NCBI GenBank assembly: GCA_040954595.2
Contig: CM082580.2
Location: forward strand, 11,608,909-11,672,908
Length of the DNA stretch: 64,000 bases
Direction of reading: 5' to 3'
DNA from: Balanoglossus misakiensis
Lineage: Eukaryota; Animalia; Hemichordata
Below, in pieces: positions 37,778 through 62,736 of this stretch. The position numbers and the translations under genes are program-made. A model generated the notes under the pieces. The model had not been told where the DNA came from. It ran no database searches and worked only from the letters and a program-made list of their open reading frames with translations. Each line of letters starts with the position of its first letter. Position 1 is the first letter of the stretch.

Positions 37778-39316
37778 ACATTGATGTCAACCTATGAAAA
37801 TATGATTTCGGCTTATTTTCATTTCTTGCACTATTTTACTTCCGTCTCGTTTCTACATCGGCTGTTTTTATAAAACATGCTACCGTGGTTCACAAATTGA
37901 AGACCCAAACTTTTAGTGAGATATAAAACCTAAGGAATTTGGTTTCCAGTTTCTCTCGAATATCTTATACTTTTTATAATTTTGCTATTTATCCTGCATA
38001 AATTGGGTTAAATTTATGATTTTAGTCAGCTTTTTTTTAATTTTCGCGTCATGTGACGTGTAGAATGTTAAAATAATATGTACAGTTTCTTTGCACTTAA
38101 TTCAGTTAATTAAAGGTTATTGACACGTTATTTTAACGAATTTGTCCCATTTTCTGTAAAGTAGTGAAATTGCCTCTTTATGGCGTCAGTACGCTCTGTT
38201 TGAGAAGGATGCCCGAATGGTGCCTATACAGTATACAATACCAAACTCCCAAAGTCCTTTTAATATGTAGGTACGAGTGGAGTGCAATCGTTCAGATATT
38301 GAACGATACGAGTGTAGAGTTTCATATTTGAACGAATGTTCTCCATCAACATTATCCGGCTTACAAAACGTAGCATTATGGCAACATCTGTGATTGTTGT
38401 ATGCTAAGCAACTTCTGAATCTCGTCAACCAATCAAAAGCTCCGGGCCCAAAATTGCACCTGGCGAATGGCTCATTTCAGCCAGCGCATGGTCAGTGAGT
38501 TGCCATGCTTCCATCATTCAGAACTCGATCTTTGACGTACAAACACCGTGGCTTAAAGTAGTGACGACAACGACCTGTTCATTACCTGGAGCAATTTCCG
38601 ACAACCAAGTGAAAGTGAAGGTCATGACTGGTGCGATATGGACTGGATTTTCCAAGATTGTGGTAGCCTCTTTGAAGATAATGTACACAAACCATCGGTC
38701 ATGGATAGTGACGACAAAAATCGAGGGTGCCTTTCTCCTGGCTTGCAGCTCCAATTGCGGACATCCTCAATTGTAAGTAACATGTTTGTCATTTTTTTTC
38801 TCAAAACAACAAGTAGGAACGATCAACAGTGGGATGGGCGCACTTGGAATTGCTCAGGAATGAACGGGAAGCATCGAGATTTCCTCTTGTTGCCCAACAC
38901 CATTTTGTGTAACTGCTGTGAGAAACCCATGTAACATCACACTTGCTATGCTGAGCATAAAATCATGCACTTGAAAACACGAGACAAATTATATAGAGTA
39001 GCCAAGTCACACAATACTTTATTTGGAAAGACTGAAATGGTTTCACAGGCTCGCATCTATGAATACAGTCCTGTAAATGCAGAAATAATCAGTATCCCAA
39101 AACCGTGTCACTTGCTGTACACACTGCAACCCACCATTGAATGAGAATAGACAAACCAAGCTGAACAAAGTCCACGCAAAAAAATTCTCAACATCTCCTG
39201 AAACCCATCGGTGACACAGCAGCTGTTTTTCACCATAAAATAGGGGGGTACCAATGGCTTTTTCATTTAAATATTTTCTCATGAATTCCATTTTTGTCAT
39301 GTGAGTGCACACATCA

Positions 39317-42300: not shown

Positions 42301-42357
42301 TTCTTCAATTTAAACACATCGAGGTACATACCTTCTGCACAATATTTGGAAAGACAT
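39317..42357 (-). CDS. HIBCH: 3-hydroxyisobutyryl-CoA hydrolase, mitochondrial
   Basis: Spliced exons encode MSFQILCRR (transit-peptide-like start), [58 protein letters not shown]...[10 protein letters not shown] and [21 protein letters not shown], all characteristic of HIBCH. Confidence 0.93.
41905..42046. repeat. Two adjacent inverted repeats (hairpins) in HIBCH intron 1
   Basis: Perfect 23-bp arms at 41913-41935 / 41976-41998 and perfect 14-bp arms at 42007-42020 / 42025-42038. A 12-bp direct repeat atatcaggtata occurs at 41905 and 41996. Confidence 0.85.
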
Positions 42358-42444
42358 TTGACCTTTGTTCGTATACTATAAGTTGTAATATGTAAGAACA
42401 TTAGATAACAATCGAAGACCTGAAGCTTCCAGGACACATGTCAG

Positions 42445-42457
42445 AGGTCAAGGGTCA
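42445..42457. promoter_or_regulatory. DR1 nuclear-receptor element in the HIBCH promoter
   Basis: AGGTCA-A-GGGTCA about 90 bp upstream of the HIBCH ATG. Motif match only. Confidence 0.35.
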
Positions 42458-43182
42458 GCAAGCTGCATAAGCGCCCTCTGAGTTAAATTTACTTAGTTCT
42501 TCGTTTCTGTTTAGTTCTGTTGTTTAGCCAGCTATTTGACCATTCAGTGCTGAACAACGATGGAAAGTTGTTGCTGTTTTCCTGACAAAACACCACAAAT
42601 ACCACAATTGGAGTTAAGGGCTATTGCCCCTTTTATTTCCCTGAATATATATGTACACATGAGTCCAGTTGTTGCAAATGATCCAAAACTGAAAGTAAAG
42701 GAAAACCGAGAAAAGGGGTCACTGGCAAGAGATGACGAATACAACAGCACTTGAATGAGGAAATATAAAAACCTTAAAAGCAAAACTATCACAAAGACAG
42801 CTTCTAGTTAAAACTAAAACAGTACATATACAAGCTGAAATAATAGATTTTTTTAATAAGAGACTCTAAGAATGTGAAGTAAAATTTGACTGTAGTAAAA
42901 CATAAATTACAATATTTACAGTTTTTAATAAATATTGTGTGTTTTTATCATTTGTACACCAGCTTCGTAACGAAGGCATCAGAATGTGTGCCGATTCTAA
43001 TGATCAGAACAGACATTCTGGGAAGTGCCTCATAATGTTGCCATGTCACAGACATGGTGGCAATCAGGTCAAGGAAGAATCTTGTTCTTATGTCCTCTTT
43101 TTTTCAAAAGCTGGTGCAGTTATCTGATCTGCTTGTCAATTTGGGAAACAATGAAACACTGATTTGTGTATTTTATTTATCT

Positions 43183-46100
43183 TCAGTTATTGTCCATATT
43201 GAAGACGGTTGACTCCATGTCTCGGCGTGGTGGTTTGAGAGGTTTCGTGGCTGCCAACATTTGTCTGGCGTACGGATTATTCTGCAGACCGGCTGAACGT
43301 AGCGCTGCGTCCAATTTGTGCCTGGGATCACTTGTGACCTATAAATTCGAACATTGAAAAGACTTTGTTTACCCTTTCACTGTATCAAGCAGTAATGACC
43401 TATTCACCTTTCAACATACCAGCTGGAGACTTCTTACTTGTCAGTCGGTGTAAGTCATGCATATCATCCATACAATGCAAGGCATTTTCTGAAATCTTTT
43501 TTCTTACCTGATTGCTGGAAAAGCCCGTCATTTCAAAGAGAGGTCGCTGTATGTTGATATCCTCCTCAACGTCTATTCCAAGTTTTGCATTAGATGCCTG
43601 CAAAAGACAGTGCTTTCTTAATAATGTGATCTAGGTTTTGACATTACTGTGGTTATCATGTCAATATATTATTATAACTGCAATAGAGATGAAAAGTGCA
43701 CACAGAATCTATTGGTACATGCAATCAAGGACAATCCAGGCAGACTCTGAGATGTGTTGTCTCACTGTGTAAAACTCTGCATGCTTATTGAATGACCTAC
43801 CTTAGTGGGTTTCATAACTCTATACGGGTCAGCGTCTACGTGGACTTCAACCTAAGGGAGAGATGGCAACATACATGTGTGTTGAAATATGCCTGTGTAA
43901 ACTCCAATTAAAAGCTAATTGCAATTAAATAGCTGTGGATGGTATCCCGCCGTCATTTCCTTCAAGCCATTAATTAGATTTGACATTGGCACTGTACAGT
44001 ACCTGATCTCGCAGCGCTTGAAGCCGACGTTCTTTCTCTCTCTCCACCTCTGCTTGCCTCTCAAGCTCCTCTTCTCTGGCTAGCAACTTCTCTTGCTGCA
44101 GTTGTTCTCGATACTCAACCCTGTCAAAGGGAAAGTTGTACGCCATTTAAGGTTATGGGTATTTTGCGTTGTGGATGATCAATTTTTTTAAAAGCATGTC
44201 AATGATTAACCCTGTCAACAAGAATAACCAAAAGTCAAAAGAAAAAAAATAACAAGTTAAAAAGACAGTTATTACATAGTTTTTCTTACCTTTCTTTATC
44301 AATTAAAGCTTGCTCAGCAAGCTGTTTCTGAAGCTCTACAAGTCTTTTTTGATCAGCTTCTGCTTTGGCAGCTCGGACATCCTCTATATGTTGATGGTAT
44401 TCTCCGAGCTGAGCATAAATCAAGAAAAAATTGTGAGAATTAATTAGTACTGCTTCAAGAAATGGCTCTGCCAGCTGAAAATGGTGACATATTTGCATGA
44501 TGATGGTGATAGCAGACCAAAGAACACAGGGGTTTGGGACATAATGATGAGTACCCTTTTCCTTTGCTGGTCTCTGCGCCTCTTTTCCATCTCAGCTTGT
44601 CTTTTCCTTTCCTCTTTCAACTCTTCCTGCCTTGCCGCTTCAATCTCGGCTTGTAGTCTCAGCTCTTCCATCTTCTGATCACGCCAGTGTTGTACCTTGG
44701 TTATGCAAAAAGGAAATGCAAGTTTAGTTAAACCGAATATATGATTTTAAGGTTTTGGCTACATTATAAAGAGCATGGGCTTCACTGAAGGGTCCCAGTC
44801 TGCCTCGGCTTGGCCTGGTTCTTGTGTAAGCTATACTGTCTCCTTACTCATCATGAAAAAGGGGATGTGCTGTATGATAAGGCAAGATCACCATGGTCAT
44901 AATACGTGTAAGCCCCAGAATTCGAATTTCGAGTCAAATGAGGACTGTGACCATAGACGACTTAAAAAACCTACCTTTTCGTACAACTTATCACAGATCT
45001 CTCGCTGTCTCTTCCGATTGATGGCAGCCACTTTCTCTAACTCCGCAGCAAGACAGGCATCAGCAAACACTGCCTTGGCTTTGTTCAGTAGCTCTGCCCT
45101 CGACTTGATCCACGAGTTGATCAACACTTTCCTATGTTCATCGTAGTATTTTTTACCTGTGTACCATTCCTCATGGGCAACCTGGGAGGAAAATTTTAAA
45201 ATTCACTTGGCTGTGATTTATCATAACGACATTAATACCAAGTCATGTATACAAAATAGACCCCTGTCAATTGCAATACAACACAGCGTAACAAATACAT
45301 ACATACAGTTACATTCAACACATGTTTCTATTGTGATGCAAATAATCTAGTACTCTATCAGAAATTCCTGTAGGGAACACACAGCTAAGGGAGACTTGTT
45401 GAGTTCCACAGGAAATCTCTACCAAACCTTGAAGGACAAGACTACTGACCAACTCTGGCCTTGTTTTGTGAGGTAACTGTCTTTTCATCCGGTCAAGATA
45501 CAGCATTCTAGAATTTGCCATGTCGTGTGGATACTGCTCCAAGATAGCCTGGAACAACAGGTGATCATCGGCGTCCCAGCCATCAGTCTCTGAACTGAAA
45601 TACATACAGAGGAAGCTCTCAATTACACGCATGGAATTAAGATACTACTGGCTATGCTTTAGGTAACCTTTCCCGAACAAGTATACAAGCAAACTGCGTT
45701 TCCATTATTAACAATAGAGACTGCCAGAAAGAAGCATGTTTGGATTCCTTCATCATTATCATGATTCCTGATCTGGATGGACATTAATACATACCAGACA
45801 ATGCTTTGATGTCTCGCATCCCACTCTGACAGTTTCTCTCTGAATCTCTCATCCAAGTAGAGAAATTCACAGAGAACTGACTCCCTGAGATACGGATCCG
45901 GGCATTCCAGTTCTTCTGCCTCGTCCGGGATGCCGTCCAACACCCACTTCTCATGCGCCGCAGACGCTTCCTTGAGAGTCCTGCGGTCCAAGTCCTGCTC
46001 CAAAGTGCCTCGCTCATCCAACAACCTGTCCAGAATCATCTTCTGTTGGCGTTTCACCGAGTTGACCGTTTTGGACACCCTGTCGTACTCCTCATAAACC

Positions 46101-46830
46101 TCTTCCTCTCCGGCCTTGAGTTCTTCCTTGTGGTCTTTCAGCCACACCTCCAGGTCCTCTCTCAGGTTGGCGATGGGATCGATGGTGGCCGCCGTGAACT
46201 GCTTCTGGTCGGCGGCCAGTTGCATGTCGAGTTCCTCGGCTTCAAGCATAAATGTAGAGATGGAAGACTCCTCTAGAGTACCATCCTGCATGTATACTTG
46301 AAGCTCTCTCTCCGCTCTCTTCCCTGCCGCCTCTAACCTCGAGTGCTCCTTCTGCCACACCATTCTATGCTGCTTCAACAAATGGTGCTCTTTGCTCTGC
46401 TTAGATACTTGAGCCAGTTTCTCAATCTTCATCAGGGACTGATTGGCCGCAAACTTCTTCTCAAAGGCAATGGCCTTCAGTTTTTCGTAGTCTACTGCTT
46501 TGTACTTGGTGCTTCCCATACCTTCCCTCATTCTGATCAGCAGTTTATCTGTTTTCAGACAAAGTCGACAGACAGTCACATCACCACACAGAAGCAGATG
46601 TGATATTGTTTGAATGGGGTGAATGCATCAAGGGGTGTTAACATACCAAATCTCTAACATAGCATAATCTAACAATGGAATTTTGTCATCATAGTATACA
46701 GGATCAAATGCTTTATGTTTTAATTATGTGTGATCACTTTTATACACATACCCTGATCATCTGTTCTTGCAATCTCTCTCTTCCCACTCCGATGTAAGCT
46801 AAGGAATTCCTTGTAGTCCCTGCCTGTCAT
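43183..46830 (-). CDS. CCDC148: Coiled-coil domain-containing protein 148
   Basis: KYKAVDYEKLKAIAFEKK...KEHHLLKQHRMVWQKE, LECPDPYLRESVL, GWDADDHLLFQAILEQYP and C-terminal DPRHKLDAALRSAGL...KPPRRDMESTVF resemble vertebrate CCDC148 as recalled. The start ATG at 46830 is inferred. Confidence 0.8.
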
Positions 46831-47206
46831 TGTGATACCTCCAAAATGGTAAAGACATAGGATCATAAGAACTCTCAACTCCTCAGTGTATATCAATGAA
46901 TATTGAAGTCCATTTTGTATTCATCCACCTGCAAACGAAGTCATTAAACCTGGTGACATGATTTCATTTTATCGCTGAATTTAATTTCTTCTGACTGACC
47001 TACGTGTACAATTTCATTAAAATGTCAATACCAGAAGTAGCCGGGCTTTACAGAAAATAATGATCCAGGTCGATCAAACTCGAGCTAAGGTTGGCGATGT
47101 AAACAAAAGAGGTCGACTAGGGGATCTAAAGTGTACGCTTGTCAAAGTTGAACTTTTCAATGAAGTCGTCGATCAACTAAACATTTGGAAGACTGGAATT
47201 CACTGC

Positions 47207-47221
47207 GTTACCCAGAGCAAC
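47207..47221. promoter_or_regulatory. RFX X-box candidate upstream of CCDC148
   Basis: GTTACC-CAG-AGCAAC fits GTNRCC(N0-3)RGYAAC. A forkhead motif GTAAACA lies at 47099-47105. Confidence 0.35.
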
Positions 47222-47987
47222 CTAAATAACAAACGATTACCTTGTTGTTATGACTAAGACGCCACTACATGGACGACGCCATCTTGAATATCAAATTTAT
47301 TCGCAAAGCACCATGGGTGAAGCCTGAGTTCATCATTAACACGGGGGGGGGGGGGGGATTGAAAATTGCTTATTTGAGGTATAGAGTTTACTTGCTGAAT
47401 TAAAAATGTAAATGACAAAGTAAGTAATTATGAAGTAAATTCTGCCCACTCAGATTTAAAATTCATTTGATGGTAAGAATTTATTAAACAAATATCAGAT
47501 ACACATAATCATGATAATGATATTGAAGTCAACAATCAGCTGTACAAGATACAAAATACAATACAATACAATACAATAAAATATACAAGCTTCCAATGGT
47601 GGGTGACATAACTGCGAAGATGGTCAATATTATTTCACATTACATAATCACGGTGTATGTATTGCAGTCTGAATTTTATTTCAGTTCCTCTCCCTTTTTA
47701 GGAGTAACAAGAAAGTTCAATGATTGACATGATACCACAATGCAGAGTTGAAAAAAAATTGTATTGACAAATCTCAATCTGATTAAAATCTTAATTAAGA
47801 CACCTAGGTTTGTATTCGTAACAATCCTCACCTCCCTTTTCTATGGTAAAGCTGGACCTCTACAGAAGCAAATAGGGGTAAAAGGGTCAACCCCACTATA
47901 GAGAGTCAGGAATGTTGACAATGAACTTTCACAGAGTACTTGACACACATTCCCCCCAAACCCAAGAAGAGACCAACTGTATCATTT

Positions 47988-50900
47988 CTAGAGTCTGTAA
48001 GAGTGTCTGTCTTTGCTATTTCGCACAGCAGCAAGAGTGGCTTCTCTTGCTTTCTCTTGGTCGTCTACACTGACACCCATTTTCTCTTGGATATTTCTAT
48101 TGGCTGATCGCAAAAATGGATTGTAAGTCTTCTCATCACCAATGGTTGACGGGCACTGCAAGGAAAGTGATAAGATGCTGTTAAAAATTATCAATTACTT
48201 ATTTCTTATGCATGATGTTTACACTCCAATTTACAGTTTACACAATATATCACGTTGAAAATGGAATCTGTCACTATAGCACCTTTGCTGAAAATAACAA
48301 AACTGAACTTACTGTCATGATTCTGTCTTTTCTTTTCTCTTCAACCCACTGCAATTTGTTCTGTGATGGAAACAAATCAGATATCAACACAGAGCTGTAA
48401 TAGTACTTATATGTCAGTTGGGTCTATCTACAGAGATCAAAAACGACCAGTCTACCACGGTTACTCTTCTATTACTCTAAAGAAAACATTGGACACACAC
48501 AGGTCTATGCAAACCACTCCATGATATGCTAATCTAAGACGTCATTTTACCTGTAAGAAAGTATTCTCTGGTTCCACAGTAATGGCAAACTTCAAGTCAT
48601 CCTTGGCATATTCATGACCTGTAATAAATGAATTATCATGCCCATAAAATGTGACATGGAGGTACTGTGATATGTGTGTCATTTTCACAAATCCTATACA
48701 GAAATGAGACCTGCCTGTGTTTCTGAAAATATACTGATTCTGAAATTCAGGGTGATAGTTATGATTTTTTTTCTCAAGCTTTTTTATTTCTAAATTTCAT
48801 AAATATCATGGAACTGCTTTTAATCTGCCAATATAATATTACCTGGCCATATTAAAGTCTCATCATTCAGCTGGCAGACAGCATCTAATGACCTCAACAT
48901 GGTCCGCGCACTTCCTTCAAACATTCGACCTGCAGGAGGATAAAAACAATGACCATCATTACACAGGAACACGTTGGCCAGAATGACTGTAGATTGAGAT
49001 ATTGATGGACGTGGACGTGGCAAAATAATTGGCCAGGGTTACTTTTTGGAAATGAGGTGAATTATCAAAAGTATCAACATACCACTGCCTCCGATAAATA
49101 ACAGATCTCCCGAGAAAAGAGAATCTGGAGCTGAGAATGGGGTCCCGTCAAGGATGTAGACAGAATGACCTGATGTGAGAGACACGAGATTTGGAAAAAA
49201 AATGGTGAAAAAAGGGCCGACTACATCATCAGCATTTCTAAACATCTGATGCAAAAGCTGTCCTCTGCATCAATCAGATCAATTCCAGTTCTCCCTAAAG
49301 CATGAATGCTGAAACCTCATTAAAGTCAATGATATCTCCTGGGATCTACCATTTGGATGACAGAATCTGTGGCAACACAGTAGCGAGCACTTCACATAAA
49401 TAATCAATGATCTCACCTTGTGTGTGACCGGGTGTAAATTTCACAGTGAAATTGAAGTTTCCAAACTGTATCTTATCATCGTTATTGACAGGGCTGGAAA
49501 AGAGATTTTTACAGATACATGTAATGCTAATACTGACATTTTGTTTGGACTGAATCATGGTGGTGTAAGGGTTAATATCATATTTTAAGTGAACACAGGA
49601 TTCTCATAACCTGCCTCTCTGTGCTTTGCTAACAACTGGTGCTTATACTCACTTTGTCAAACCAGGTATTGAGTCCGATGAAGAACCGTAGACTGGAACA
49701 TTTCTATAGTTGGATTTCATTGTTGAGTTTCCTCCACTGTGATCCCTGTTCAGAATTACATTACATAAAAATACAAAAGATTAACATATTTATTGTTAAG
49801 GTTCACACACTCAAATTCCCCCAAAACGGTACTTTCAAAGAGTTTTTCCATTATTCCCAAATTTAAAATGCCATTTGCAAAGTGTCGGAAAAAATGATAT
49901 ATCTTACCAATGTTTATGTGTTGTAAGTATTGCTAACAGCTTTACATTTTCATCAGTTAGAAATTTCTAGAAAAGACAATTTTTTAAATAAGATTATCTG
50001 CTGGCTATGAGCAACCAGTATGTACATGTAGATTCTGAATATGCGGCTGCTTGTAAGTTGTACAAACATATGTAAAATATCTAGACCTTGAACACATGGA
50101 AATATACATGCTTTGCTGTGTATTGGTGATAAGAGCAATAGAAACATGACACAAAAGTGTTACCAAGACTTCTATATACACGTACCAACATTTTCAACCC
50201 TTTGGCTTGAAAATATCATAAATAATACTGTATCATGTCAGTGTGGACTTGGTTGTCTTTTAAACTAGCTTATCATCACGGTGCGCCAGGCATTTAGAAC
50301 GATTCCCTTGTAACGATGCAACAATTTGCTGCATCACTGGGTTTTCATTGGATTGTGACTCTTACCTGTATGGTTTCAGCGTCAGACGGATCAATGACAA
50401 CCGCTACATTGTCCACTGTGTCAATCAGGACATAGGAGTAATTGTCTTCTATCAGTGGAATAGGACAGATTTTCAAGCCTGTAGATGAGAAATAGACAGA
50501 CATGGTAAAGTGGTGGTGATGATGATAACCACCTATTTACATAAAAGGATAATGTCACATTTTCTTCAAATTTTCAACATTTTAAAGGTCTTTTTTATTT
50601 TATCGTTTAATAGAAAACAACGCTTCCATATTTATTAAGGTACAATAGACTAGCTATCATCCTGATCCTTTGATTTTAGTAACCAGAGAAAAATATCCAT
50701 ATACTGAGTTATAGGCATACAGATATTTTTTGTGCGCTAGCTTTTTTATCATTTGCCTGTCATCGATAGCATTTCAATTTGCAAGAGGTTACAATAGCAA
50801 GGAGATAGTGAGCTGAATATTTCCATGGTAACAGACATATAGATGAGATTGGTTGGCGAGGACGTCTGTCTGATATAATGTGCACTGTTATAAAATACAT

Positions 50901-51821
50901 TAATGTCTGTACAGTTGAAAGGTCATGTCATAACCAATCATTTTGATTCTGATAGGTATCTGTCATGATTCACTACATCTTGAAATTAAATGTCATATAA
51001 AGTTCAGGTAGTTACATTTCACGGAAACAGATTTTCAGATATTTGTTAGTCCTCCAAATCTTCCAATATTCAGAGAGAATAATCTAAATCATGCATTGAG
51101 CAAAACATGAGAAAATATTCAAGATCTTGAGAAAGACAATATTGTTTCCCTGAGCATTTTTTCATTACCTCTGAATTCCACTGGGGAAACCACAGAATGG
51201 CCATCTGGGAATTTTTGTCTTGCTTTGGTTATATTCTTGAGGTGGTACACATAACCAAGCCGGGTTCTCGTATACAAAAAGTATCTGTAAGCGAGACATA
51301 TACAAGAAATCTACTGTAGACGCCCAAGGCCTCGGAAATCGAACACGAAAGGGACAACAGAACGAATAATACACAGACGTGCAAATCATGCAGAGTTAGA
51401 CACTCGTACAAATGATCAATTATCATCAAAACAGTAAATCGTGATTCATGTGATACAGGTACAAAGTACAAACTGTCAGAACAATGATCAGCATGGTAGG
51501 GCACTTTTGTTCAGCATTGTTGTCCTCTTTTCAATATACAATTATGTGCACTGCTTTGACGCATAAGGTCAAGTTGTACAGTACACACAACATTTGTATA
51601 TCTACTGTGAAAGTCTGCGATTCCTGAGCACACAGATTGCCTGGAGTGATCAAAGTTCACACGTTACACATAACTCACCCGATTTTGAAGAGAAACCCGC
51701 CCGGTCTGGTCGCCATCGATGATCTCTTAGCAGAATATCGGCGATAAAGAATGAGCACACTCACTCCAAGAAAAATGAAAGCTGGCAATGAAAACATCAT
51801 CCTGCTGCGCGTCCAGGTCAT
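47988..51821 (-). CDS. PNKD: PNKD-like metallo-beta-lactamase / glyoxalase II-family hydrolase
   Basis: N-terminal hydrophobic segment; [13 protein letters not shown]...KFPDGHS (PNKD-type extension); DNYSYVLID; THKHW|DHSGGN metal motif; TPGHTQG; [11 protein letters not shown]; GRMFEG; WPGHEY; [16 protein letters not shown]. Confidence 0.85.
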
Positions 51822-52344
51822 GTCCTTCCGGTGATAAACAAACAGGGATTTGGCCCGCCCTCAACGTTCAAAGGCTGTTATACAGACACACCCACCCCAG
51901 GGGGACACGCCCACCTGTTTGAGCTGCATGCATGGTTACCGATATCACTGTAGAAAGACGCAAGAAACAATGAAAACGTTGCATTTTAGACTATGAAATT
52001 TCATAAACAAAGCATGATCTCATCCACAAGAACATGCTGAGACATTTACATTTTTATTTTTCATTAAAATATTGTACTTCTTTAAAAATTGCAGGAATTC
52101 GTTATAGAGAAGTGTTGGTCTTGATATACTATCATTATTTTTGCATTGGTCAATGTTTTACTGCTAATATAACCGGGGTGTAAAAAAGTCATCCAAACCT
52201 AAACTGGTGTTCAACACTTTTATTCTTATAAAACAGTGAACGTCAGTAAAATGCTAAATATTAAAACAGAACAAAACATTACAGTATAATAATTTATATA
52301 TATTAAATTTTTTCATGTTTTATGCATCAAACCTTTGGGTGACA

Positions 52345-52737
52345 AGTTCAGAATGTTGTCTCGTTGTGTAGTTATCTCATAAAAACTTTTCTTTCTGAAG
52401 CAGTTGGACCTCATTCTGTATAACAAATGTTTAACTGATACATGTAGCTTGTGATGAGAACAGGGTTAAAAAGTATTTGTAACACAAAAACTTAAGTAAA
52501 AACTGGAAAATTTCAACAAATGTAAAAGTCCAGAATGTTGTCTTCTTGTACATCAAAACTTTTCTCTCCAAAGCAGTAGGACCTCATTCTGCATAACACA
52601 ACATATCTTGTACCTCACAGACAGTACATCATGTTTAACTGATACACATAGCTTGTGTTGAGTACAGGGTACAACAAGTATTTGTAACACAAAAACGTAT
52701 CAAGTAAAAACTGCAAAACTTCAACAAATGTAAAAAA
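52345..52737. repeat. Diverged tandem duplication (~185-210 bp x2) in the predicted 3' UTR of the DNMT3-like gene
   Basis: cagaatgttgtc...ggacctcattctg...atgtttaactgatac...aagtatttgtaacacaaaaac...caacaaatgtaaaa occurs twice in succession. The second copy carries a ~25-bp insertion. Confidence 0.75.
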
Positions 52738-53005
52738 ATAAACAGTATGAACAATACTTTTAAAAGGCAACACTTAGGAATCAGTCATTGCTTTTATTTT
52801 AGAACAGATATGCATCAATTTTGAATAAGATTTGAACAACACTGCAGCAGACCAGCTCTCACAGGTCTGGGAAGGGGGAACACAACTTCAGATGCAAAAT
52901 GGCAGTAAATAATGACCAGTAACCAAGAACTTTGGCTGTATGTTGACCATTCTTCCTCGTATAGTCTGGCTGTCAACCCTTCTCTGTAAACACCCTGGTA
53001 TTCTT

Positions 53006-56000
53006 CTATGGAGCATCAACTGATCTATAGTATTCCTTGAGAGGTGCCAGCAGATGCTTGATGACAGGGACACCCCAAATCTGGCAAATTAACTGCTGTC
53101 TCTGCAGCACAAAAAAAGAAAAAAAACACTGAATATCAAACCTGTATGACCAGTGGGTTTCAAGGATGTCAATTGGTGATGGACAGATAATTCGGCTAAT
53201 ATTCCTCATCACTTACAGCGGAGCTTAAAACTAGAATATAGTTAATTCTCGCTACCTTTTTGCTACCTAGGTGAGGGATGAAAATATCATATGGTTGACA
53301 AAATTTAAAGTCAATTTCAAGTCAACATACAGCGAGTTGTCGACCTTTTTACCCAGAATGCACTTATAATAACACGATTTGATCCCCTAGCACAAAGTAA
53401 AAACCTATTCTAAAGAACTGTATTGATAATGGTAACAATTATCATTAGGAACTTGTTGTTTACCTCGCCTGTTTTGCTACCAGTATGCACAGGCATATAA
53501 CAGTCCTCAAAATCATCGTCTGCAGATTCTGAAACTATTGTCGCTTGTGGCCTGAAAACATTCAAAAGGGGAATTTGTATAAATCATCAGTTGCATATAC
53601 AGTTATGACCTCTCATATACATGTGTGCACGCATGTCCATGAACAAAATCTCATCAACAGCCAGCCTGCACTGCGGTGACCAAGTATCAAGCAGCGGTTT
53701 TTAAGTTTTTGATGTGAATGGACATACATACATCCAATATCCATACATACAGATCCCAATGGTATATCTAAATACATCAAATGTGTTTATTGAGCGTACA
53801 TGCATACCTGTCCATAGCTGGTAAGTTACCCCAGACGAGTCTTGATTTATGATTGTGGGCTTCTGAAAAAACCTCTGCATCCAAAGTTATAGGCTCCGTC
53901 TATCAACATGTTGACAGGTGCAAAAATAGTATTGGTATAACACAAACGAGAAATGAGTAAATTATCTTAATGCCAACTTGAAATCTATTATTTTGTTGAA
54001 AGGGAAACGCTACAATATTCCTTTCGTGGCTATTATAGAATGTTGTTTGATGGTACATAAAACAAAACTTAAATCTGCAGTACTAAATTATAAATCTGAA
54101 ACAATTTGGTCACCCAATTTTTAATCCTTTCCACCCTCATTTCCCTGTATAAAGGTCCAGCATTTCTGTTGAAAACAATAGAATTGGACCAAACCATTGT
54201 GGTAAAAGGGTTAAAAAGGTCAAGCCTAAGTAATCCATTACCTTTAGCAATCTACATATTGTCTCCTCGCTCCAAGGCATCATATCTGGCACATTTTCAT
54301 AGAGCCAGAAGAAAGGTCGTTCACCCGAAGATTGCTTGAGTTCGTCTAAAATACGTACAAACTCAAAGAAGAGGGTGCCACTGCCATCTGGATGGATAAA
54401 TAAAACCAGATGTTAAGTGAACATCCTTGCAAGTTTTGAATATAGATGCAAATTAGCAATTGACTTGAGATTTTGTGTTTTTATATACCGGTACTTAATA
54501 AGTAACATCTTTAGCAAAGTTCAATCTGCGATCAATGCTGGGAAACACGTACACTTGAAATTACAGGGATGATACCTACCTGGATCGTAAATACTCTTTT
54601 TGTTGGGATTTGCCATAGACAGGTCATTACAGGGACTGCCACCAAGAAGCAGATCAATAGGCCCCCATTCTTGCAACTGATGAATTATACAAAAGAATGC
54701 AAAACACAATGTGAATCTTCAAAGCTATACATGACATGCGACAGGATGGCAAAACAAATGAATTAGGCAAATCAGAAATTAAAGTAATTGACAAGATATA
54801 TTGCACATATAGTGGGTACATCTCATTACAATCAGACATCTTAATAGTTAGATCAGTATCCATAGCAAGTATGGTCACTATCTTGAGCAGTTCATGAAAA
54901 TGATATGGTAAAGATATACACTTAGGAATATAACGCTATTTGCACAATTTCATGCAGACTCAACATTGCTTTTATGTCACACAGTGTCAGATACTTGCCA
55001 TCTCTTTGGTGACACTGCGGATGCTACCAACATAGTCGATGGGGCCTAGGTGTTCGGTTGGAGTCATTTGATAGACATTCTCAGCTTCTGTTGCATAGTA
55101 TGCATCTACCTTGATGCCAAGCTCTTCCAGAGCCGATAATCCTTGTGAATCAATGAAATGTTTGAATACCGTACAATCAGTCAGTATTGCTATGAATTGC
55201 ATTAAATTTCACGACTTCATTTTATTTTCATATACAATGTTTCATGCGATAGATTTACCTGTTGCAACATCCTCATACAGAGACAAGACCGTCATTGGTC
55301 TTCTATCCCACATATAAGGAGGCAAGAACTGTGGGCCCACATTTGGAGAACTTTCACTAGCGAAGATGTCCACAAGTCTCTCTCTCCAATCTTCCCGGCG
55401 TCTCAGAAAACCAGGGCACACTGGTCTGCACAAGTAGCATAACCAGGGATTCTGTAGTCTAGCCTTTGTGGGTGATGATGACAAAACCATAAAGACAATC
55501 AAAAAACAAGAAAAATCTGCCAAGCCTTCCGGTTAAAAAATGAAATAAAATTATTGCATTCACAATATACAAGTAGATTGAAATTTTCCTGGCATTTAAC
55601 ACAATCAGCAACCATAAAACCACATGCAATATGCATTTTGAATAAGGTGTAAGTTACTGTGGATTATTTGTGTTTTTTATTTTTAGGGTTATTTGAGTGG
55701 AGTTCTCAGACCTTCTTAACTCCACCTGGTCCTTCAAAAGCCTCCACACAACTTGTACAAAAAATGCGGGAACAGTTGTCATTATCACAAATGATACTCT
55801 CTTTTCCCTCAGAGCAAATGGAGCAGACAGCCTGGTAAAAACAAAAGTACAATATTATAAAACCAATCAAAACAGTACTTGCAGCAATGTAAGTCTGCTC
55901 CCATTAAGTTCTTCAAATTCTGATAAACATGCAATTTTTGTCACGTTCTAAGTCAAAGCTCATTCTGAAGGTTTCTCTTTCAAGAATATAGCAAACTTTA

Positions 56001-59000
56001 TCACTCAAGATTTCTTAAAGAGTGCAAACTACATCAAAGGGTAAAACACACACCAAAACATGAGCCAATTGTACCTCACCTGACGGAAGTCTTTGTCATA
56101 TATGAATGCTGACCTTTGGAAATTCACCTGTAAATCGAAACAAAAGTTGATGTGACCAACTTCACCTGATATACCATGAAACTAAGTGCGTCAACCAAAA
56201 TCACGCGAAACTGCCAGAAAATACTTCCCCAATGATAACCATCTGGCATCCTATTATTTGTTTTTAAAAAGATAAAGATTATTCAGTTTGTAGAAGTGAT
56301 TGTTAGTGAATTCCAAATGTTCGATATTTTTCTCAAACTTCACTCAAGTTTGATTTGATTTTGAACCTCACCTTACATCTGCCACACAGACCCCCTTCCA
56401 CAAGAGGGTGTTCCACCACTACCTTGCTGCTGCCACAGCCAACGCACACGTCTGGAAAAAAAAGTGCAGAATAAAACGGAAAAGTTCCTGATTTTGCAAC
56501 AGAAATGGCCTTAGCCAGTTCTCATGTCTATGTGGGTCTTGAATTGGTTGCTTGGAAATAAAATATTTAGGGATGGTACAGTCATCGCGATTTCCCCTGA
56601 AGAGCTGTTACAGCAACTCAGACCACATATCTTGCAAATGAAGCCTGCATGGAGGGACAATCGAGTCACATCCTTCAACAAACTATTTCAGAGAAGTAAC
56701 ACAATAAGAGATTGCTGTAAATAATCTATACACATATGTCCTGACATGACATGCAAATACATCCACATAAAAGTACTTGTTCAGAATCTTTGATTACGTT
56801 TGGAAAGCAAAAAATCCTACCTTTCAAATTGTATTTGCCCTTTTTCATGCCCAACTTTACTTGTCTAAGTTTCCGAGCTATAAAGTAGAAAATGCATATA
56901 TCATGCATGAGAATGATCAGCAAGGAATTTTTGTAACTTCTCCGTCACATAATTTCCCGAACAATGAAGGGATATAGGTTTGGACAAGTTTTTGTGGTCA
57001 GACGTTGTAATTTGAAATGGTATATTTACCTCGATGTTCACCCGCAACAACATATGTTTCTTCTTCATCGGTCTCTGCATTCTTTTCAATGTCTGCAATT
57101 TGACAGCAAGAATAATCATATTAATGTACACTGTGATTTCAAAGTAAGAGTAAGACTTTGTTGTAACAAGGAGAGGATGACAGTATGGTATGTTCTGTCA
57201 AGTGTCTGATGTCTACAATATTTATATAGATTCTGTTACCGACATCTCATACCTAAGTATTTACCAGTAGATCACTGGCGCCTTTTGGCTGCATCAGTTA
57301 ACTTATCAAGTTCATATACTATCACAGTGTTTGTTACGGTAATTATGTTGTCTACAATTCTCACATGCAGATAAAATTAAGTAGCACCTTCCGTTGGCTT
57401 CAGTGAGGAGGGACCATCAGGTGGGAAGCCTTCTCTTGCCCAAGAGATCTTCTCAACACACGCTCGTGACATGCCAGATGTTACCAGTCTTGTCTTCTGA
57501 AGCATTTTCTGGGACATGGCAATCTTTCTTCTTTTAGGTGTTGAAGCGATGTCCTCATCTTCCTCATCTTCTGAATCGGTGTCGTATTCTGAAATCTTGA
57601 AAGACTTCTTGGCTCTAAAACATGCCATCTGTATAAACATAAATAATTATAAACTGGCCATGGTGTAATATTTTTGCTCGCAGATCACTGTCACAATTAT
57701 TTAAAATCTGGATAGCATAAAACAATGACAAAGTAATCTAATTGACCAAAGTAAATCATATAATACCTCAAAATACTACTTACATCAAAAACTTTACATA
57801 TTGCGTACTTGTATACCTCATCCCCTTCAAAGTGCTTTTCAGAGAAACAGTCATTGAACTTGTGAAATGGTTGCAAACCTTTCACATTGACCTGAGAAAA
57901 GTGAATGAATAAGTTAATTCTAGCTATTAGCAAACTATACATAAACATTACACTCTGTGAGGGAAATAAGTAAAAAGAAATTGTATACATGTACTATCAG
58001 TCATGTCCTCAGGGTAAACACTATAGCCAAGAGGTGTGTCAGCTCCAGGCCCATGACTGAATCGACACTAACCTTTTGGTATTTTCTAATCCTTTGTTAG
58101 ACAGTCTTTTTCTTTTCTCAGTATGTAACTTGCAATTCTTTGACTTTTGACCAAAAAGCCAAAATTACCATTAAAGTATAATAATAAGTCTAACTCAGGT
58201 CAACCCCAGGTAACAGAAATTGAGGCATTCAGTTTCACAATCAGTGCTACAGTATTACATAGAAATAACAATGTACCTTTGAATGCTTCAAGTCACCAAA
58301 CCACTGCACCCATCTGCAATTTGGACCAGGATCTGTATTGCCATCCTCTATCATAGCAGGCCACCAAGGATATCCTTTCAGTTTGGCCCAAACCAATTCT
58401 CCTTCGATGTACTGTTCATTCGCCTGTTAGGAGAGGTATACAGGTCACGACTTAAAATTACTATTGTTTTCTTTTGCAACTGAAGCCGAGTGTGATAGAT
58501 CAATGAGAAGTTTGAAATGTACTTTTAAAACAAATATTGCAATAATGAATGATACTCCCCTCACTGCGAGATCTCACGAGATTTGGTTAGTTACCATAGC
58601 AATGGTTCCTAGCCAAGTAATAGTAATACAAGTCATGTCTTGTATGAAACTACAATAGGTTCAGAGTTTAACGAAAATTGTAACTTTTGTGCCGTTTTAA
58701 TAACACGATAGACCATGTGTTGTACTGTCACAGGAGAAATTCCGCCCATGTAAACTGATTTGCCACGTGAGATTTCGCTATGTCTCGTTCATTTCGGATA
58801 ATGGTCTATTGAAAGCTACATCCCCGGGGGGAATACACCCCAGTCCTGGTGACGTGCCAAGAACAAACTTCAAGGGATTTATATCAGTGCGCAAAAACGA
58901 AAAAAAAAAAACAGTCACTGTTGTGTCCTTCCAATTGAGATGACTTTCCCAATTCGTGACATGGACACCGTGACAGAGAAATGACATTATTTTAAAAATC

Positions 59001-59336
59001 TTTGGGCATTTTCTGCCTCTCCAACGCAAATTCTTCACGGATGGAAGTTCGCGGACACGGGACAGGATGAAAAGTGGTTTCTTTCCACTGATTTTTCGCG
59101 GAACTTTGATGATTCATATTCAATAGAAGTTGCAATAGAATTAGCAAATCAGTAGAATTTTCTCGAACATTTAGGGCAATTAATCCAAGTTGACATAGAT
59201 GATGCACGTCGTCGGGGGATCACACACTGAACGAACCGTGCCATCAAATTAGATCATACATGCGCGATCATTGTTTTTAGCATGGAAGTAGAAAAAACAC
59301 CGTGATTTGCTTAGAAATAACGATTTTACTTACCAT
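53006..59336 (-). CDS. DNMT3-family protein, PWWP-ADD-degenerate methyltransferase (~577 aa; probably catalytically impaired)
   Basis: 16 phase-compatible exons: 59334-59336 (ATG), 58277-58423 ([14 protein letters not shown]), 57784-57891, 57388-57628 ([11 protein letters not shown]), 57030-57092, 56821-56877, 56372-56451 (CVGCGS...[13 protein letters not shown]), 56080-56127, 55712-55831, 55259-55463, 54999-55141, 54580-54676 (GGSPCNDLS), 54242-54387 ([10 protein letters not shown]), 53808-53899 (WGNLP), 53464-53551, 53006-53101 ([17 protein letters not shown]). The total is 1,734 nt with no internal stop. Confidence 0.88.
54121..54214. mobile_element. TTAA-flanked ~94-bp MITE-like element (piggyBac-type ends)
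   Basis: ttaatcctttccacc ... ggtaaaagggttaa form imperfect terminal inverted repeats with TTAA at both ends. Related fragments lie at 3839, 15171, 47837 and 49544. Confidence 0.55.
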
Positions 59337-61055
59337 TTCCTCGCCTCAACTAATTCTCTCACCAACTAAAAGAATCAAAAGAAAGCAACTCTGCTTTGAG
59401 ACCCTCTAGCGTACCATCTAACTTTTAGCGCCCTTAGGTCACAAATATCTCTGGGAGGGGGGATGACTTGCAAACAAACAAAAAACTTCCGTTTTCGTTT
59501 CTATAATCCCATGATGCCTTCATCACTTGTATTTAAAAATGACCCCTTCTCCAATTTAAAGATTTTTGGAAGATTCTATTGGGAACGCGAATAGACTGAG
59601 AACACTGAGGTACATCCTTGGAATGCAAATACCCTCCGTTCATATAAAACGTATGCGCCCTTTTCACGATGAAGACCTGGGATGAAGGGATGGCATAATC
59701 GGAATGACCGATTTTAACGAGAAATGTTTCCTGGTAGTCTGGGCTAGGAAATAATAAAAATTCGAAGCGCCAAAGATTGGTCAGATTCTATCCTTTTTTA
59801 TTCCTGTGCGATGAGAGTACTCATGAAAGAGCATACACTGCCCTCATGTGACGATTCAACACTTCTGTTCTGGGTTTCAGAATGTAAGTTAATTGAGACA
59901 CAAATCGTAACCTTTGAAGGACACTTTTAGCAGAAATATGTGGAGTGACTGTGCAGAAACTTCGGGCTATTTTTGGACTGTTTTTGTTTTGCGCGTGTAA
60001 ACAAACACTTCTCGTTCTACCTTCCGTCAACATTTTGTAAGGGTTTTATTAGAGTAGTTTTCAAACCGAATCTCTACAAGTCTGATATTGCAAAGATCGC
60101 GTGGAAAATTAATTTAACTAGACCTATATATTATCCCAGCATAGCACATATACAGATTTTTTATCAACCAAACTTTCTAAGAGTAAGTGCGGATGTACTT
60201 TTCCAATTGTATGGGGTTTCCCAACATCACTGAAATGTGTTGTAATGTGCAATAAAGTTACTATCTTAGCTGTACCTCCCGCCATGCTCCTACGAAAGAG
60301 AACAACCAAGAAAAGTCGTTGAGACGCCAAAGTATATAGTCTTAGGCCTAATCTCCGGGTTTTCGCGTTAAAATAAAAACCCAAGGTTAATTCTGATCCA
60401 CGAACCTTTTCATTACAGAACTAAATTTAATGTTCTATTGATTACAAACTTTAAAACATATATGTAAATCAACATCACTGACATTGTATATACCTTCTGA
60501 ATTTTTGAAAAGTCATACATGTATGATGTAGTTTTGAAATTCATCAGAAGCTTGGAATATACATTATTCGAAACATATTGATTACTAGGAAACTCTTTGC
60601 AATCCTGTATTTATTTGAGTTGAACTTTGTGTAGGGACTTGTTACCTCTGCTGTGTTCTTTTACCTTTTGATGAATTCATAATGACGACATTGCATTGAA
60701 AGACACTTATTGTATAGTACTCTCGTACTGGTTTTCCCACGGCGCATACTAATGAAACACAGTGCACACACAGTATGGACATATGGACAGGGTTTCTTTG
60801 GAAACTGCAAAAGTTACAGGGGGACTAGAATCGAAAGTGTCGATTTTCTAGTTATGTATTTCCCAACGTTGCCGTAATAAGTCACACTGCCGCCAGACGG
60901 GGCCGAGCCGAACGGATATTAGTGAGTGCGCCACTATGGGGTCGGTGCAGAGCGAAATGAAACACCCACGGGAAAGTGGAATAGCCCTGACACTCTCGCT
61001 ATCCGCGCGTCCGCGCTCTATCCCACTGTACGCGTACGCGCAGAAGAAGATCAAA

Positions 61056-62736
61056 ATGGCGGTGAAACACTGTGACAGTTTCCAATTGGTACTGATTTTA
61101 GCCGTTATTGCGACAGTTTTCGGTCTTTCAAACAAACAGCAAGGTACGTGACACACAACCTGTCGATTTCACGTCGACAGGGGGGCCAGATTTCCTTCGA
61201 AATTGAAGAAAGTCCGGGTTTAAGCTGGTGATCGCAGCGCCTGGTACGGATTAAGTTTCCGTCTGTATATAGATAGGTGTGACATGCACATGCCTCACCT
61301 TTTATTACCTTGTTGACGTTGTATTGTTTTATAACTTACACATTATCTGTGCCATTTGCAAATCATCCACCATATCCGCATGATTCACCATGACGAAGAG
61401 GAAGTCACCCACACACAAATCGTCATTGGACTTTCCCATACTTAACAGGTGGTGGTCTACATAAACACCGGCACAAAAACGGTACAATTTACTGCTTGGA
61501 ATGGTAGTAGGCTAAATATTGCGCATTACATAAGGCGCGCCTGTCAACAATAAATACATTCAAGACTTCGATGAGAGTAGCTGGGAGTGTCAATTTCTAT
61601 TATTAAAAAAAATGAAATATTTATATAGATATCAGTACGAAGACACATTCAAATACCAAGCTGAAATGATACATGATATATACTAGTTCACTGCTGTGAT
61701 GGACTTGCAATGTATACATTTCTAATGATGGAATATTCTGTTGAGGTTATTGCGCTGTACAACATTTGTTTTTAATATTAACCTTTTTTCACATACATAT
61801 AATCAGTTAATAATTAATCAGAGCTGATTGTTGGTATGGGCAGTGTGTAATAAAAAACAATCAAACCATAAAACATTTATTTGGTTAGGGTTGTGTGGAA
61901 TGTCTGTAACCTTGGATTATTTTTTGTTCAATTCTGTCTGACAGTTGCTTAATTTTGGACTATCTACGCTTACGTATACAGCCAGCCTACACATGAAATA
62001 TTGTTATACCTGAAGAAAAAAAGCCATTCTCACACTTTAACAATAGTTGCTTGGCAACCAAAACATTGGGAATGGAGGAAGAGGAAGTCAGAAGTCACAA
62101 CATCAGCTCTTGGACACAACAGATCCCAATGAGTGACTAAATATTTCTTTTGGTCATTTCCGTTGATTTTCCAGATCTCGAGGGAGAATACAGCTTTCTG
62201 ACCTCAGGCAAGCAAGACAAGACGCTGAAGACGATAGTCGATGTTGATTTTGACATTGAGAAAGATCATCGGCCGAAAAGATTCAAACGTGGAGCGGATG
62301 ATGAAGTGCCACCAACACCGGATGAACTTTTTGAATTTCTGGTATGGTATAGCTGATAACTAACATTAACAATAGGGCATTTTTGCATAAAAGAAAATAG
62401 AGCAGACACTGTGTAGAATGGATGCCCCAAAGTCCAGTCTCCATCTAGGCATTAGGTGCCATATTCTCTGTTGATTATACCGATTAACATGGTTCGTACT
62501 ATATATAAATTGCCATTACATGTACTGGTAGGTCATGACAAACTAGACCATGACGTGGTTATTTGATATATCCTTCTTCATGTGTACATTTTTATCCACA
62601 TGTTTTCCTATTATACCAGGACCATCACAAATACTACACATCAAAGTTCCTGTCAAGTGCTGATGATCTGTGGGTTGACTTAGACCAAAGGGGTTCTGAG
62701 CATGGTAAATTATCTGACAGGCATCTAACAGCAGTG
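61056..62736 (+). CDS. Plexin domain-containing protein (PLXDC1/2-like), first three coding exons, 3'-partial
   Basis: Exon 61056-61143 encodes a signal peptide (MAVKHCDSFQLVLILAVIATVFG). Exon 62175-62341 has a furin-like site (RPKRFKR). Exon 62620-62736 (DHHKYYTSKF...DLWVDLD...HGKLSDRHLTA) resembles PLXDC2 DHNYYISRI...DLWVNID...HGILSNTHRQA. The gene continues beyond the window. Confidence 0.75.

Follow-up and report, generated by a model that had tools for sequence, protein, structure and literature searches.

A predicted inactive DNMT3 of an acorn worm that lacks the target recognition domain

DNMT3 proteins assemble into 2:2 tetramers. The two inner subunits contact each other through the RD interface, whereas the outer subunits are held through the FF interface only and have a disordered target recognition domain (TRD) and cofactor pocket (PMC13109025, PMC10711551). 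These disordered parts are the ones lacking in DNMT3L and in DNMT3B3, an inactive splice isoform of human DNMT3B (PMC13109025, PMC10711551), and a preprint reports that residues W860, H873, D876 and N879 of the RD interface are required for the tetramer (10.1101/2025.09.24.678339). Here we describe a DNMT3-like gene on the minus strand (59336-53006) of a 64-kb stretch of DNA from the acorn worm Balanoglossus misakiensis (assembly GCA_040954595.2, contig CM082580.2, positions 11,608,909 to 11,672,908), called the window below, and compare its predicted product with these systems.

An earlier note on the window, made from the sequence, had read this gene as an inactive DNMT3 cofactor, of a kind of which it knew no description outside vertebrates. 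However, Daphnia magna DNMT3.1, which has PWWP and ADD domains, is without five of the six catalytic motifs and has been proposed to act on DNMT3.2 in the manner of DNMT3L (PMC8016896, PMC11963560); with this case in print, the main novelty claim of the note falls. Knock-out of DNMT3.1 changed 2770 genes, with little link to methylated regions (PMC8016896). DNMT3L, which the note placed in amniotes, has been reported across tetrapods including axolotl (PMC7618676).

The largest change in the B. misakiensis protein, absent from the earlier note, lies between motif VIII and motif X. In the alignment to human DNMT3A (9LQ1 chain A), residue 801 is the last one matched by exon 14 and R885 the first one matched by exon 16; the 83 residues between them comprise the TRD, motif IX and the RD interface. 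The stretch from motif VIII to R885 is 31 residues long in the window protein, against 83-89 in 18 of 18 canonical DNMT3 rows (19 were tried, one of which was not cut by the pattern) and 20 in DNMT3B3. The RD homodimer residues W860, H873, D876 and N879 are all missing, and the protein should therefore be inactive as a methyltransferase and unable to serve as an inner subunit, a prediction from sequence that we regard as very probably correct. The missing TRD and RD interface appear to be the strongest ground for inactivity; the altered S-adenosylmethionine (SAM) motifs, on which the earlier note had based the same conclusion, are secondary, with 5 of 11 cofactor contacts unchanged. An inactive accessory DNMT3 is, as a kind, already known; the new aspects are a TRD loss written into the gene, the retention of the catalytic residues and the likely hemichordate setting.

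Gene structure and the region after motif VIII

In the translation of 52000-60500, a minus-strand chain of 16 exons joins into 1734 nt and 577 amino acids with a single terminal stop, in agreement with the open frame of about 577 residues in the earlier note. Fourteen of the 15 splice donors are GT and one is GC; all 15 acceptors are AG (11 CAG, 2 TAG and 2 AAG). Intron 1 measures 910 nt and the remaining 14 introns 117-385 nt. The GC donor makes intron 11 (54998-54677, minus strand) a GC-AG intron, its donor being otherwise strong. The predicted protein carries a PWWP domain, an ADD domain and a C5-methyltransferase fold in that order, which is the domain order of the DNMT3 family. Among the 12 exons scanned with Pfam, exon 2 matched PWWP (E 7e-10) and exons 7 and 9 matched ADD (E 2e-9 and 2e-11), all above the cut-offs, and exons 12 and 13 matched the C5 methylase model below its cut-off; exons 10, 11, 12, 13, 14 and 16 each match human DNMT3A or DNMT3B chains of the PDB in collinear order. 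The splicing is a prediction; for exons 1, 5, 6 and 15 it is based on frame and splice signals, without significant homology. A 24-nt candidate exon inside intron 4 is ruled out by an in-frame stop. The features of the gene, all on the minus strand except the last, to which no strand is assigned, are as follows.

59334-59336, exon 1, coding part: ATG alone, followed by a strong GTAAGT donor; an inferred start, with an in-frame stop four codons upstream and without homology support
58277-58423, exon 2: PWWP, with the methyl-lysine cage Y19, W22, W42 and D45 (human F303, W306, W330 and D333) intact and GDLKH as in Saccoglossus DNMT3
57784-57891, exon 3: second half of PWWP, with LQPFH as in Saccoglossus DNMT3
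57388-57628, exon 4: acidic and basic linker and the conserved post-PWWP W...FPP.GP helix
57030-57092, exon 5: linker, 63 nt, phase 1-1, frame-optional, predicted from splice signals only
56821-56877, exon 6: basic pre-ADD linker, 57 nt, phase 1-1, frame-optional, predicted from splice signals and a loose alignment
56372-56451, exon 7: GATA-like finger of ADD (PF17980, E 1.6e-9)
56080-56127, exon 8: ADD pocket for unmethylated H3K4 (H3K4me0), with D244 and D246 (human D529 and D531) kept
55712-55831, exon 9: PHD-like finger of ADD (PF21255, E 1.6e-11)
55259-55463, exon 10: end of ADD, followed by motif I (F640Y, D641E, G642D and I643V)
54999-55141, exon 11: motif II (E664 kept) and motif III (D686S), with the GC donor at its end
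54580-54676, exon 12: motif IV, whose catalytic cysteine C421 (human C710) is intact; V716A and R720K in the catalytic loop
54242-54387, exon 13: both FF-interface helices (F732, R736 and R771 kept; Y735V, F772L) and motif VI, ENV
53808-53899, exon 14: motif VIII with a two-residue insertion and R790K; R792 kept
53464-53551, exon 15: 29 codons where the first TRD exon would be; the frame with the strong acceptor at 53101 needs this exon, and its homology is not significant
53102-53463, intron 15: 362 nt, in which neither the TRD loop nor the W860 block nor motif IX has left a trace; a pyrimidine tract and AG adjoin the R885-equivalent codon
53006-53101, exon 16: remnant of motif X (G890C; W893 kept), C-terminal helix and stop; its first residue, R547, aligns with R743 of DNMT3B3
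58424-61200, intron 1 and upstream: no CpG depletion (observed/expected 0.98, against 0.41 in the gene body); likely an unmethylated promoter

The shortening is also seen in the number of residues that follow motif VIII, which is 62 in the window protein, 111 in DNMT3A, 48 in DNMT3B3 and 56 in DNMT3L. Only 2 of the 31 invariant columns of the TRD are kept, 26 being gaps, in comparison with 99 of 125 in the rest of the protein (p 4e-14). No TRD remnant was detected in the 64 kb with six tblastn queries, a hidden Markov model (HMM) of the stretch and a position-specific scoring matrix (PSSM). When the TRD loop, the W860 block and motif IX were scored with PSSM blocks, 53006-53807 did not surpass random windows of 802 nt. 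The similarity of exon 15 to the first TRD exon is reached by 95 of 200 random windows. Two likenesses spotted by eye in intron 15, DIL..R and KRSTTR, were rejected as TRD remnants, their best scores being reached by 30 to 199 of 200 random windows, as was a longer last exon opened by the weaker acceptors at 53211-53128, which would translate the pyrimidine tract and has no TRD homology.

The last acceptor, with its long pyrimidine tract, immediately precedes the R885 codon, and the canonical last segment starts 18 codons earlier (mouse DNMT3B3 row). From this arrangement we infer an evolved splice site and not a slip of the assembly.

Cofactor pocket, reader domains and the FF surface

Residues were compared with 15 canonical rows, 13 of which cover PWWP, with human numbering transferred through whale DNMT3A. 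The catalytic cysteine, glutamate and arginine are all retained (C421, E468 and R506, corresponding to C710, E756 and R792), and motif IV is kept at 9 of 9 positions, whereas it is lost in DNMT3L and in three paralogues of the hemichordate Ptychodera flava. The post-motif IV loop (54580-54600, minus strand) is two residues longer (YDPD) than in chordate and sea urchin DNMT3, as it is in the millipede row and in P. flava XP_070555444.1. Six changes fall in columns that are invariant in 15 of 15 canonical rows: F640Y, D641E, G642D, D686S, R790K and G890C. The motif changes listed in the earlier note were all recovered, namely FDGI to YEDV in motif I (exon 10), GDV to GSI in motif III, the two-residue insertion and R790K in motif VIII, where R792 is kept, and GRSW to CQIW in motif X, as was the retention of the catalytic cysteine motif, ENV and LFFEF. 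The note had also likened motif I to that of DNMT3L; human DNMT3L does read LSLFEDI, but the likeness is convergent, because the reptile DNMT3L rows read FDNI in four of four cases.

Motifs I, III and X, which bind SAM, are thus altered in a protein that retains T645, G646, E664 and W893. G642D lies in the glycine loop and D686S at a contact with the adenine; SAM binding is in general hindered when the motif I glycine is replaced by a charged residue. Of the 11 contacts of DNMT3 with SAM named in PMC13207087 and PMC9072302, five are unaltered (T645, G646, E664, E756 and W893), four differ (F640, V665, D686 and S892), and at the other two the protein has variants that canonical proteins can also have (V687I and R891Q), so that the pocket is, by this residue comparison, damaged and not erased. 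Glutamine at R891 occurs in the DNMT3 of Saccoglossus and Platynereis, both with an intact TRD, and is therefore not in itself a sign of decay. SAM-pocket columns were changed more often than other invariant columns (6/10 versus 16/75, p 0.017), a comparison that is not relied on because its residue list was set after the data had been seen.

The histone-reading parts are better preserved. The PWWP cage is intact at 4 of 4 residues, D529 and D531 of the H3K4me0 pocket are kept (both sets as named in PMC13109025), and all 12 invariant cysteines of the ADD domain are present in exons 7-10.

The FF surface is of mixed quality. In DNMT3B it involves F673, Y676, H677, Y681 and F713 (PMC10711551); the window protein has F at F673, V for Y676, R at H677 and L for F713, which is F772 of DNMT3A. 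The statement of the earlier note that this interface is kept holds for F732, R736, R771 and the LFFEF helix and fails at Y735V and F772L. Position 772 is F in 14 of 15 canonical rows and in all three reptile DNMT3L rows with a letter there; the Y735 position is variable in DNMT3L rows (F, M, F, H). A divergent DNMT3A-like protein of frogs (Ranitomeya, Bufo) also has an altered FF surface (Y735P and F772H in the Bufo row), with its catalytic motifs intact. R547 of the window protein aligns with R743 of DNMT3B3, one of the two arginines by which that isoform is anchored to the acidic patch (PMC7846833).

Relatives, selection and the role of the protein

A HMMER search with exon 10 against 1.84 billion representatives gave 51 matches, with no close orthologue among them; 47% was the best identity among the matches spanning most of the exon. 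The named matches were DNMT3 of sea urchin, amphioxus, millipede, priapulid and amphibian, DNMT3L of reptiles, and a P. flava protein without PC or ENV. With the same exon the ESM Atlas returned only unnamed or bacterial clusters. Longer proteins were also searched by words for homologues of exons 10 and 13, with no match, which is weak evidence. For an exon of a neighbouring gene, an exact look-up was negative and the ESM Atlas had no usable match.

Maximum likelihood (ML) trees were built from 28 or 22 proteins, without Saccoglossus, Daphnia, lophotrochozoans, cnidarians or an active P. flava DNMT3. The window protein and DNMT3L were not joined in any of four trees; in the approximately unbiased (AU) test, neither a sister placement with DNMT3L (p 0.189) nor one with sea urchins (p 0.155) was rejected. 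The window protein and the P. flava paralogues appear as sisters with an SH-like approximate likelihood ratio test (SH-aLRT) value of 90 and a long-branch warning in the 28-protein tree, with support of 60/79 in the 22-protein tree and of 42/83 for the catalytic half, and in the tree of the N-terminal half the window protein adjoins ecdysozoans (54/69). Diagnostic columns shared with the window protein number 2/34 for DNMT3L, 7/44 for P. flava, 6/64 for sea urchins, 8/50 for ecdysozoans, 5/41 for gnathostome DNMT3A and 0/11 for DNMT3B. The trees thus do not place the gene, and the results point to no special kinship with DNMT3L, as the earlier note had supposed in calling it independent of that protein, though the AU test does not reject joining the two.

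A closer likeness is found in PWWP, where GDLKH and LQPFH occur in the window protein and in Saccoglossus DNMT3 fragments and in none of 186 comparison proteins, among them 147 with a PWWP-type motif. The supplement of PMC8330077 contains each of the two motifs a single time, a partial count, as long sequences are shortened there. The shared motifs suggest, with fair probability, a hemichordate host, and we infer that the window gene is a duplicate of a DNMT3 like that of Saccoglossus, or its orthologue. A search with the P. flava protein mentioned above brought two further genes of its type to light among the 120 matches listed of 1838, so that P. flava has at least three of them (XP_070580695.1, XP_070555444.1 and XP_070579579.1). 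They have a PWWP-ADD-DNMT3 architecture and form a clade (100/100); all are without PC, ENV and F732 yet keep FDG, and two of these dead-type proteins are named 'DNMT3A-like' in RefSeq.

Conservation along the window protein is graded, the invariant columns being kept at 9/9 positions in PWWP, 27/31 in ADD, 51/70 in the catalytic core and 12/15 from motif X to the end, and variable columns matching the consensus at only 10/34, 12/62 and 5/30. Reader domains retain 36 of 40 invariant columns and the catalytic core 63 of 85 (p 0.058). Under random substitution without indels, frame and splice dinucleotides survived in 266, 42, 1, 0 and 0 of 1000 runs at 2, 5, 10, 20 and 30% amino-acid change. 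The terminal branch of the window protein in the ML tree is 1.07 changes per site long, and with an open frame and usable splice sites only a small part of this divergence can therefore be neutral. The frame and the histone-reader residues look maintained by selection; a very recent release from selection would escape detection.

The explanation we favour, though only as about as likely as not, is that the product of the gene is an outer subunit without catalytic activity, which would bind an active paralogue of DNMT3 and assist in placing it on chromatin. The history would then begin with a duplication, probably within hemichordates, after which one copy would have lost its TRD exons and been confined to the outer position of the tetramer; its SAM pocket would subsequently have drifted, with readers and fold remaining under selection. 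The protein would bind an active DNMT3 dimer as a 2:2 complex and stabilise it, and may cap higher oligomers and contribute modules that read H3K36me2/3 and unmethylated H3K4. Such a history is supported by the closest-looking relative, the Saccoglossus DNMT3, which in the excerpted supplement (PMC8330077) keeps motif I, motif VIII and the TRD, and the window gene would fit, in an invertebrate, the prediction from structure that the parts lost are those unused by an outer subunit.

Several observations weigh against this role, which depends on an eroded FF surface and on an active partner. The hydrophobic cluster of the FF interface is disturbed by Y735V and F772L; five of the 11 published SAM contacts are unchanged and two more are canonical-type variants; and the second acidic-patch arginine of DNMT3B3, R740, corresponds, counting back, to T544. 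No second DNMT3 was found in the 64-kb window by tblastn or HMM; an active partner is a postulate. No orthologue was found from which a ratio of non-synonymous to synonymous rates (dN/dS) could be taken, and a very recent loss of function could stay unseen. The idea itself is not new after Daphnia DNMT3.1, and the gene is one further candidate.

The protein could instead be an inactive chromatin reader that does not stimulate methylation. It might repress or serve as an adaptor through PWWP and ADD, or hold active DNMT3 back by sequestering it, as has been proposed for Daphnia DNMT3.1. We consider this possible but rather unlikely. It would account for the better retention of readers than of the catalytic core (36/40 against 63/85, p 0.058), the partial loss of the FF cluster and the little link between the 2770 genes altered in the Daphnia knock-out and methylated regions (PMC8016896); the three dead P. 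flava paralogues are also without F732, and no active P. flava DNMT3 was present among the 120 matches listed of 1838 (411-1311 amino acids long). A pure reader, however, would not need the methyltransferase fold, F732, R736 and R771, which have been kept along a long branch. Relaxed selection on the sole DNMT3 of the species, or on a redundant copy heading to loss while DNMT1 alone keeps methylation, seems distinctly improbable to us. It agrees with the lack of a shown partner and of an orthologue in protein searches, with the repeated loss of DNMT3 in invertebrate lineages (PMC8330077, PMC11963560), and with the PWWP likeness to the canonical Saccoglossus DNMT3, of which the window gene could therefore be the orthologue; it is opposed by the open frame, 15 usable introns, 12/12 ADD cysteines, graded conservation and the small share of the branch that can be neutral.

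An active, divergent methyltransferase whose TRD is missing only from the assembly or the gene model would explain why C710, E756, R792, T645, G646, E664 and W893 are kept, and the splicing is only predicted, with exon 15 lacking significant homology. Yet the window contains no N, intron 15 is ordinary in length (362 nt, with introns 2-14 at 117-385 nt), a strong acceptor stands exactly at the R885 codon, which is not what an assembly slip would produce, and G642D, D686S and G890C, at positions invariant in 15/15 rows, are independent of the TRD; we judge this explanation very unlikely. Starved of SAM, C5 methyltransferases show side activity on cytosine, by deamination or removal of a hydroxymethyl group, and the kept Cys, Glu and Arg might serve such a SAM-free attack. 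The 9/9 retention of motif IV, lost in DNMT3L and the three P. flava paralogues, speaks for this, but at 73% retention of the invariant core columns (51/70) it is unremarkable (about 0.06 as a simple product). Of the three DNA-binding elements named in PMC13109025, the protein lacks the TRD loop and the RD helix and has an altered V716 in the third, leaving a SAM-free activity barely credible.

CpG is depleted in the gene body (observed/expected 0.41), as it is in neighbouring genes (0.40-0.59), but not in intron 1 and the upstream region (0.98); GpC is near 1 and TpG is raised. This pattern fits a methylated, transcribed gene with an unmethylated promoter in a methylated genome, and is weak evidence of transcription. 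A divergent plus-strand gene seems to start near 61060 with a signal-peptide-like segment, and the CpG-rich stretch at 58424-61200 between it and the DNMT3-like gene is likely a bidirectional promoter. Three genes lie downstream on the same strand as the DNMT3-like gene (38800-51900, minus strand). One belongs to the enoyl-CoA hydratase family (PF16113) and is probably HIBCH; the others are a coiled-coil gene with an open stretch of 322 codons and a glyoxalase II-like gene, which resemble CCDC148 and PNKD, names that got no Pfam or PDB support. On the plus strand, 26741-36478 is a single open frame of 3245 codons with near-identical LDL-receptor class A repeats (PF00057 on the first 500 amino acids), an unusual single exon of 9.7 kb, and 1-21300 holds a gene of several exons that resembles MALRD1-type receptors: it has many MAM domains, one exon matching PF00629, as well as LDLa-like stretches and, near 21200, a probable transmembrane segment.

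Comparison with known DNMT3 proteins

Amphioxus has a single DNMT3 (PMC6976628), and a 54-species survey reports few invertebrate duplications (PMC8330077). The excerpts of PMC8821070, PMC11292947 and 10.1101/2020.04.09.033167 contain no dead invertebrate DNMT3, and PMC11618098 never mentions DNMT. No published description of dead DNMT3 genes in hemichordates, including the three of P. flava, was found in a search that did not reach most subscription papers.

Daphnia magna DNMT3.1 resembles the window protein in being an invertebrate DNMT3 with PWWP, ADD and a non-functional catalytic domain. It keeps only motif VI, whereas the window protein keeps motifs IV and VI and R792, and it has a known active partner in DNMT3.2; the two are likened here by description. 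The P. flava paralogues, which are database predictions, are like the window protein hemichordate PWWP-ADD proteins with a dead-looking catalytic domain, and share with it G890C, the loss of D686 and, in two of three, F772L. Their pattern of loss is the reverse, however, with FDG and (in two of three) the TRD kept and PC, ENV and F732 lost, and kinship does not appear established by 7/44 shared columns, no more than the 8/50 shared with two ecdysozoans. The Saccoglossus kowalevskii fragments XP_006815704.1 and XP_006824674.1, as given in the supplement of PMC8330077, have GDLKH, LQPFH and Q at R891 in common with the window protein and differ in keeping FDG, RARY, the TRD and the RD residues; they are partial models in which motifs II-VI are not visible.

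Tetrapod DNMT3L (PDB 2PV0 and reptile rows) has, like the window protein, an ADD domain with an H3K4me0 pocket, has lost the motif I glycine and the TRD, and has a tail of similar length (56 versus 62 residues). It has no PWWP and has lost PC and ENV, all of which the window protein possesses (PWWP at E 7e-10; catalytic cysteine C421), as the earlier note had pointed out for PWWP and the cysteine, so that by content the window protein is not a DNMT3L. DNMT3L also keeps an aromatic residue at both the F732 and F772 positions, in contrast to F772L here.

A wider proposal, which we put forward tentatively and with some doubt, is that acorn worms, as close invertebrate relatives of chordates, evolved their own inactive DNMT3 accessory subunits apart from DNMT3L, and that the window gene is a hard-wired DNMT3B3, in which the TRD was lost first and Cys, Glu and Arg are still present, as an intermediate toward a DNMT3L-like cofactor. 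If true, the gene and the three dead P. flava paralogues would represent an undescribed hemichordate expansion of DNMT3 pseudo-enzymes. If the dispensability of the outer TRD and SAM pocket, which the structures suggest, eases the evolution of inactive partners, repeated origins and losses that follow the structure would be expected. This bears on whether accessory subunits of de novo methylation were invented by vertebrates or have arisen more than once, and on the targeting of methylation in invertebrates.

Human DNMT3B3 (PDB 6PA7 chain N, 9E00) and the window protein both keep PWWP, ADD and motifs IV, VI and VIII, both lack the TRD and end in a short tail (48 versus 62 residues), and the R743 position is kept. 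The isoform loses its TRD by splicing, whereas in the window gene the loss is fixed in the gene; the isoform drops the whole TRD but, judging from the mouse isoform 3 row, still has the latter half of motif IX, whereas the window gene has an exon in place of the first TRD exon and no motif IX; and the window protein is additionally changed in SAM motifs I, III and X and in two FF residues. If the reading of the protein as an inactive outer subunit holds, the window gene would encode outright what splicing produces in DNMT3B3, and would have come to this state independently of DNMT3L.

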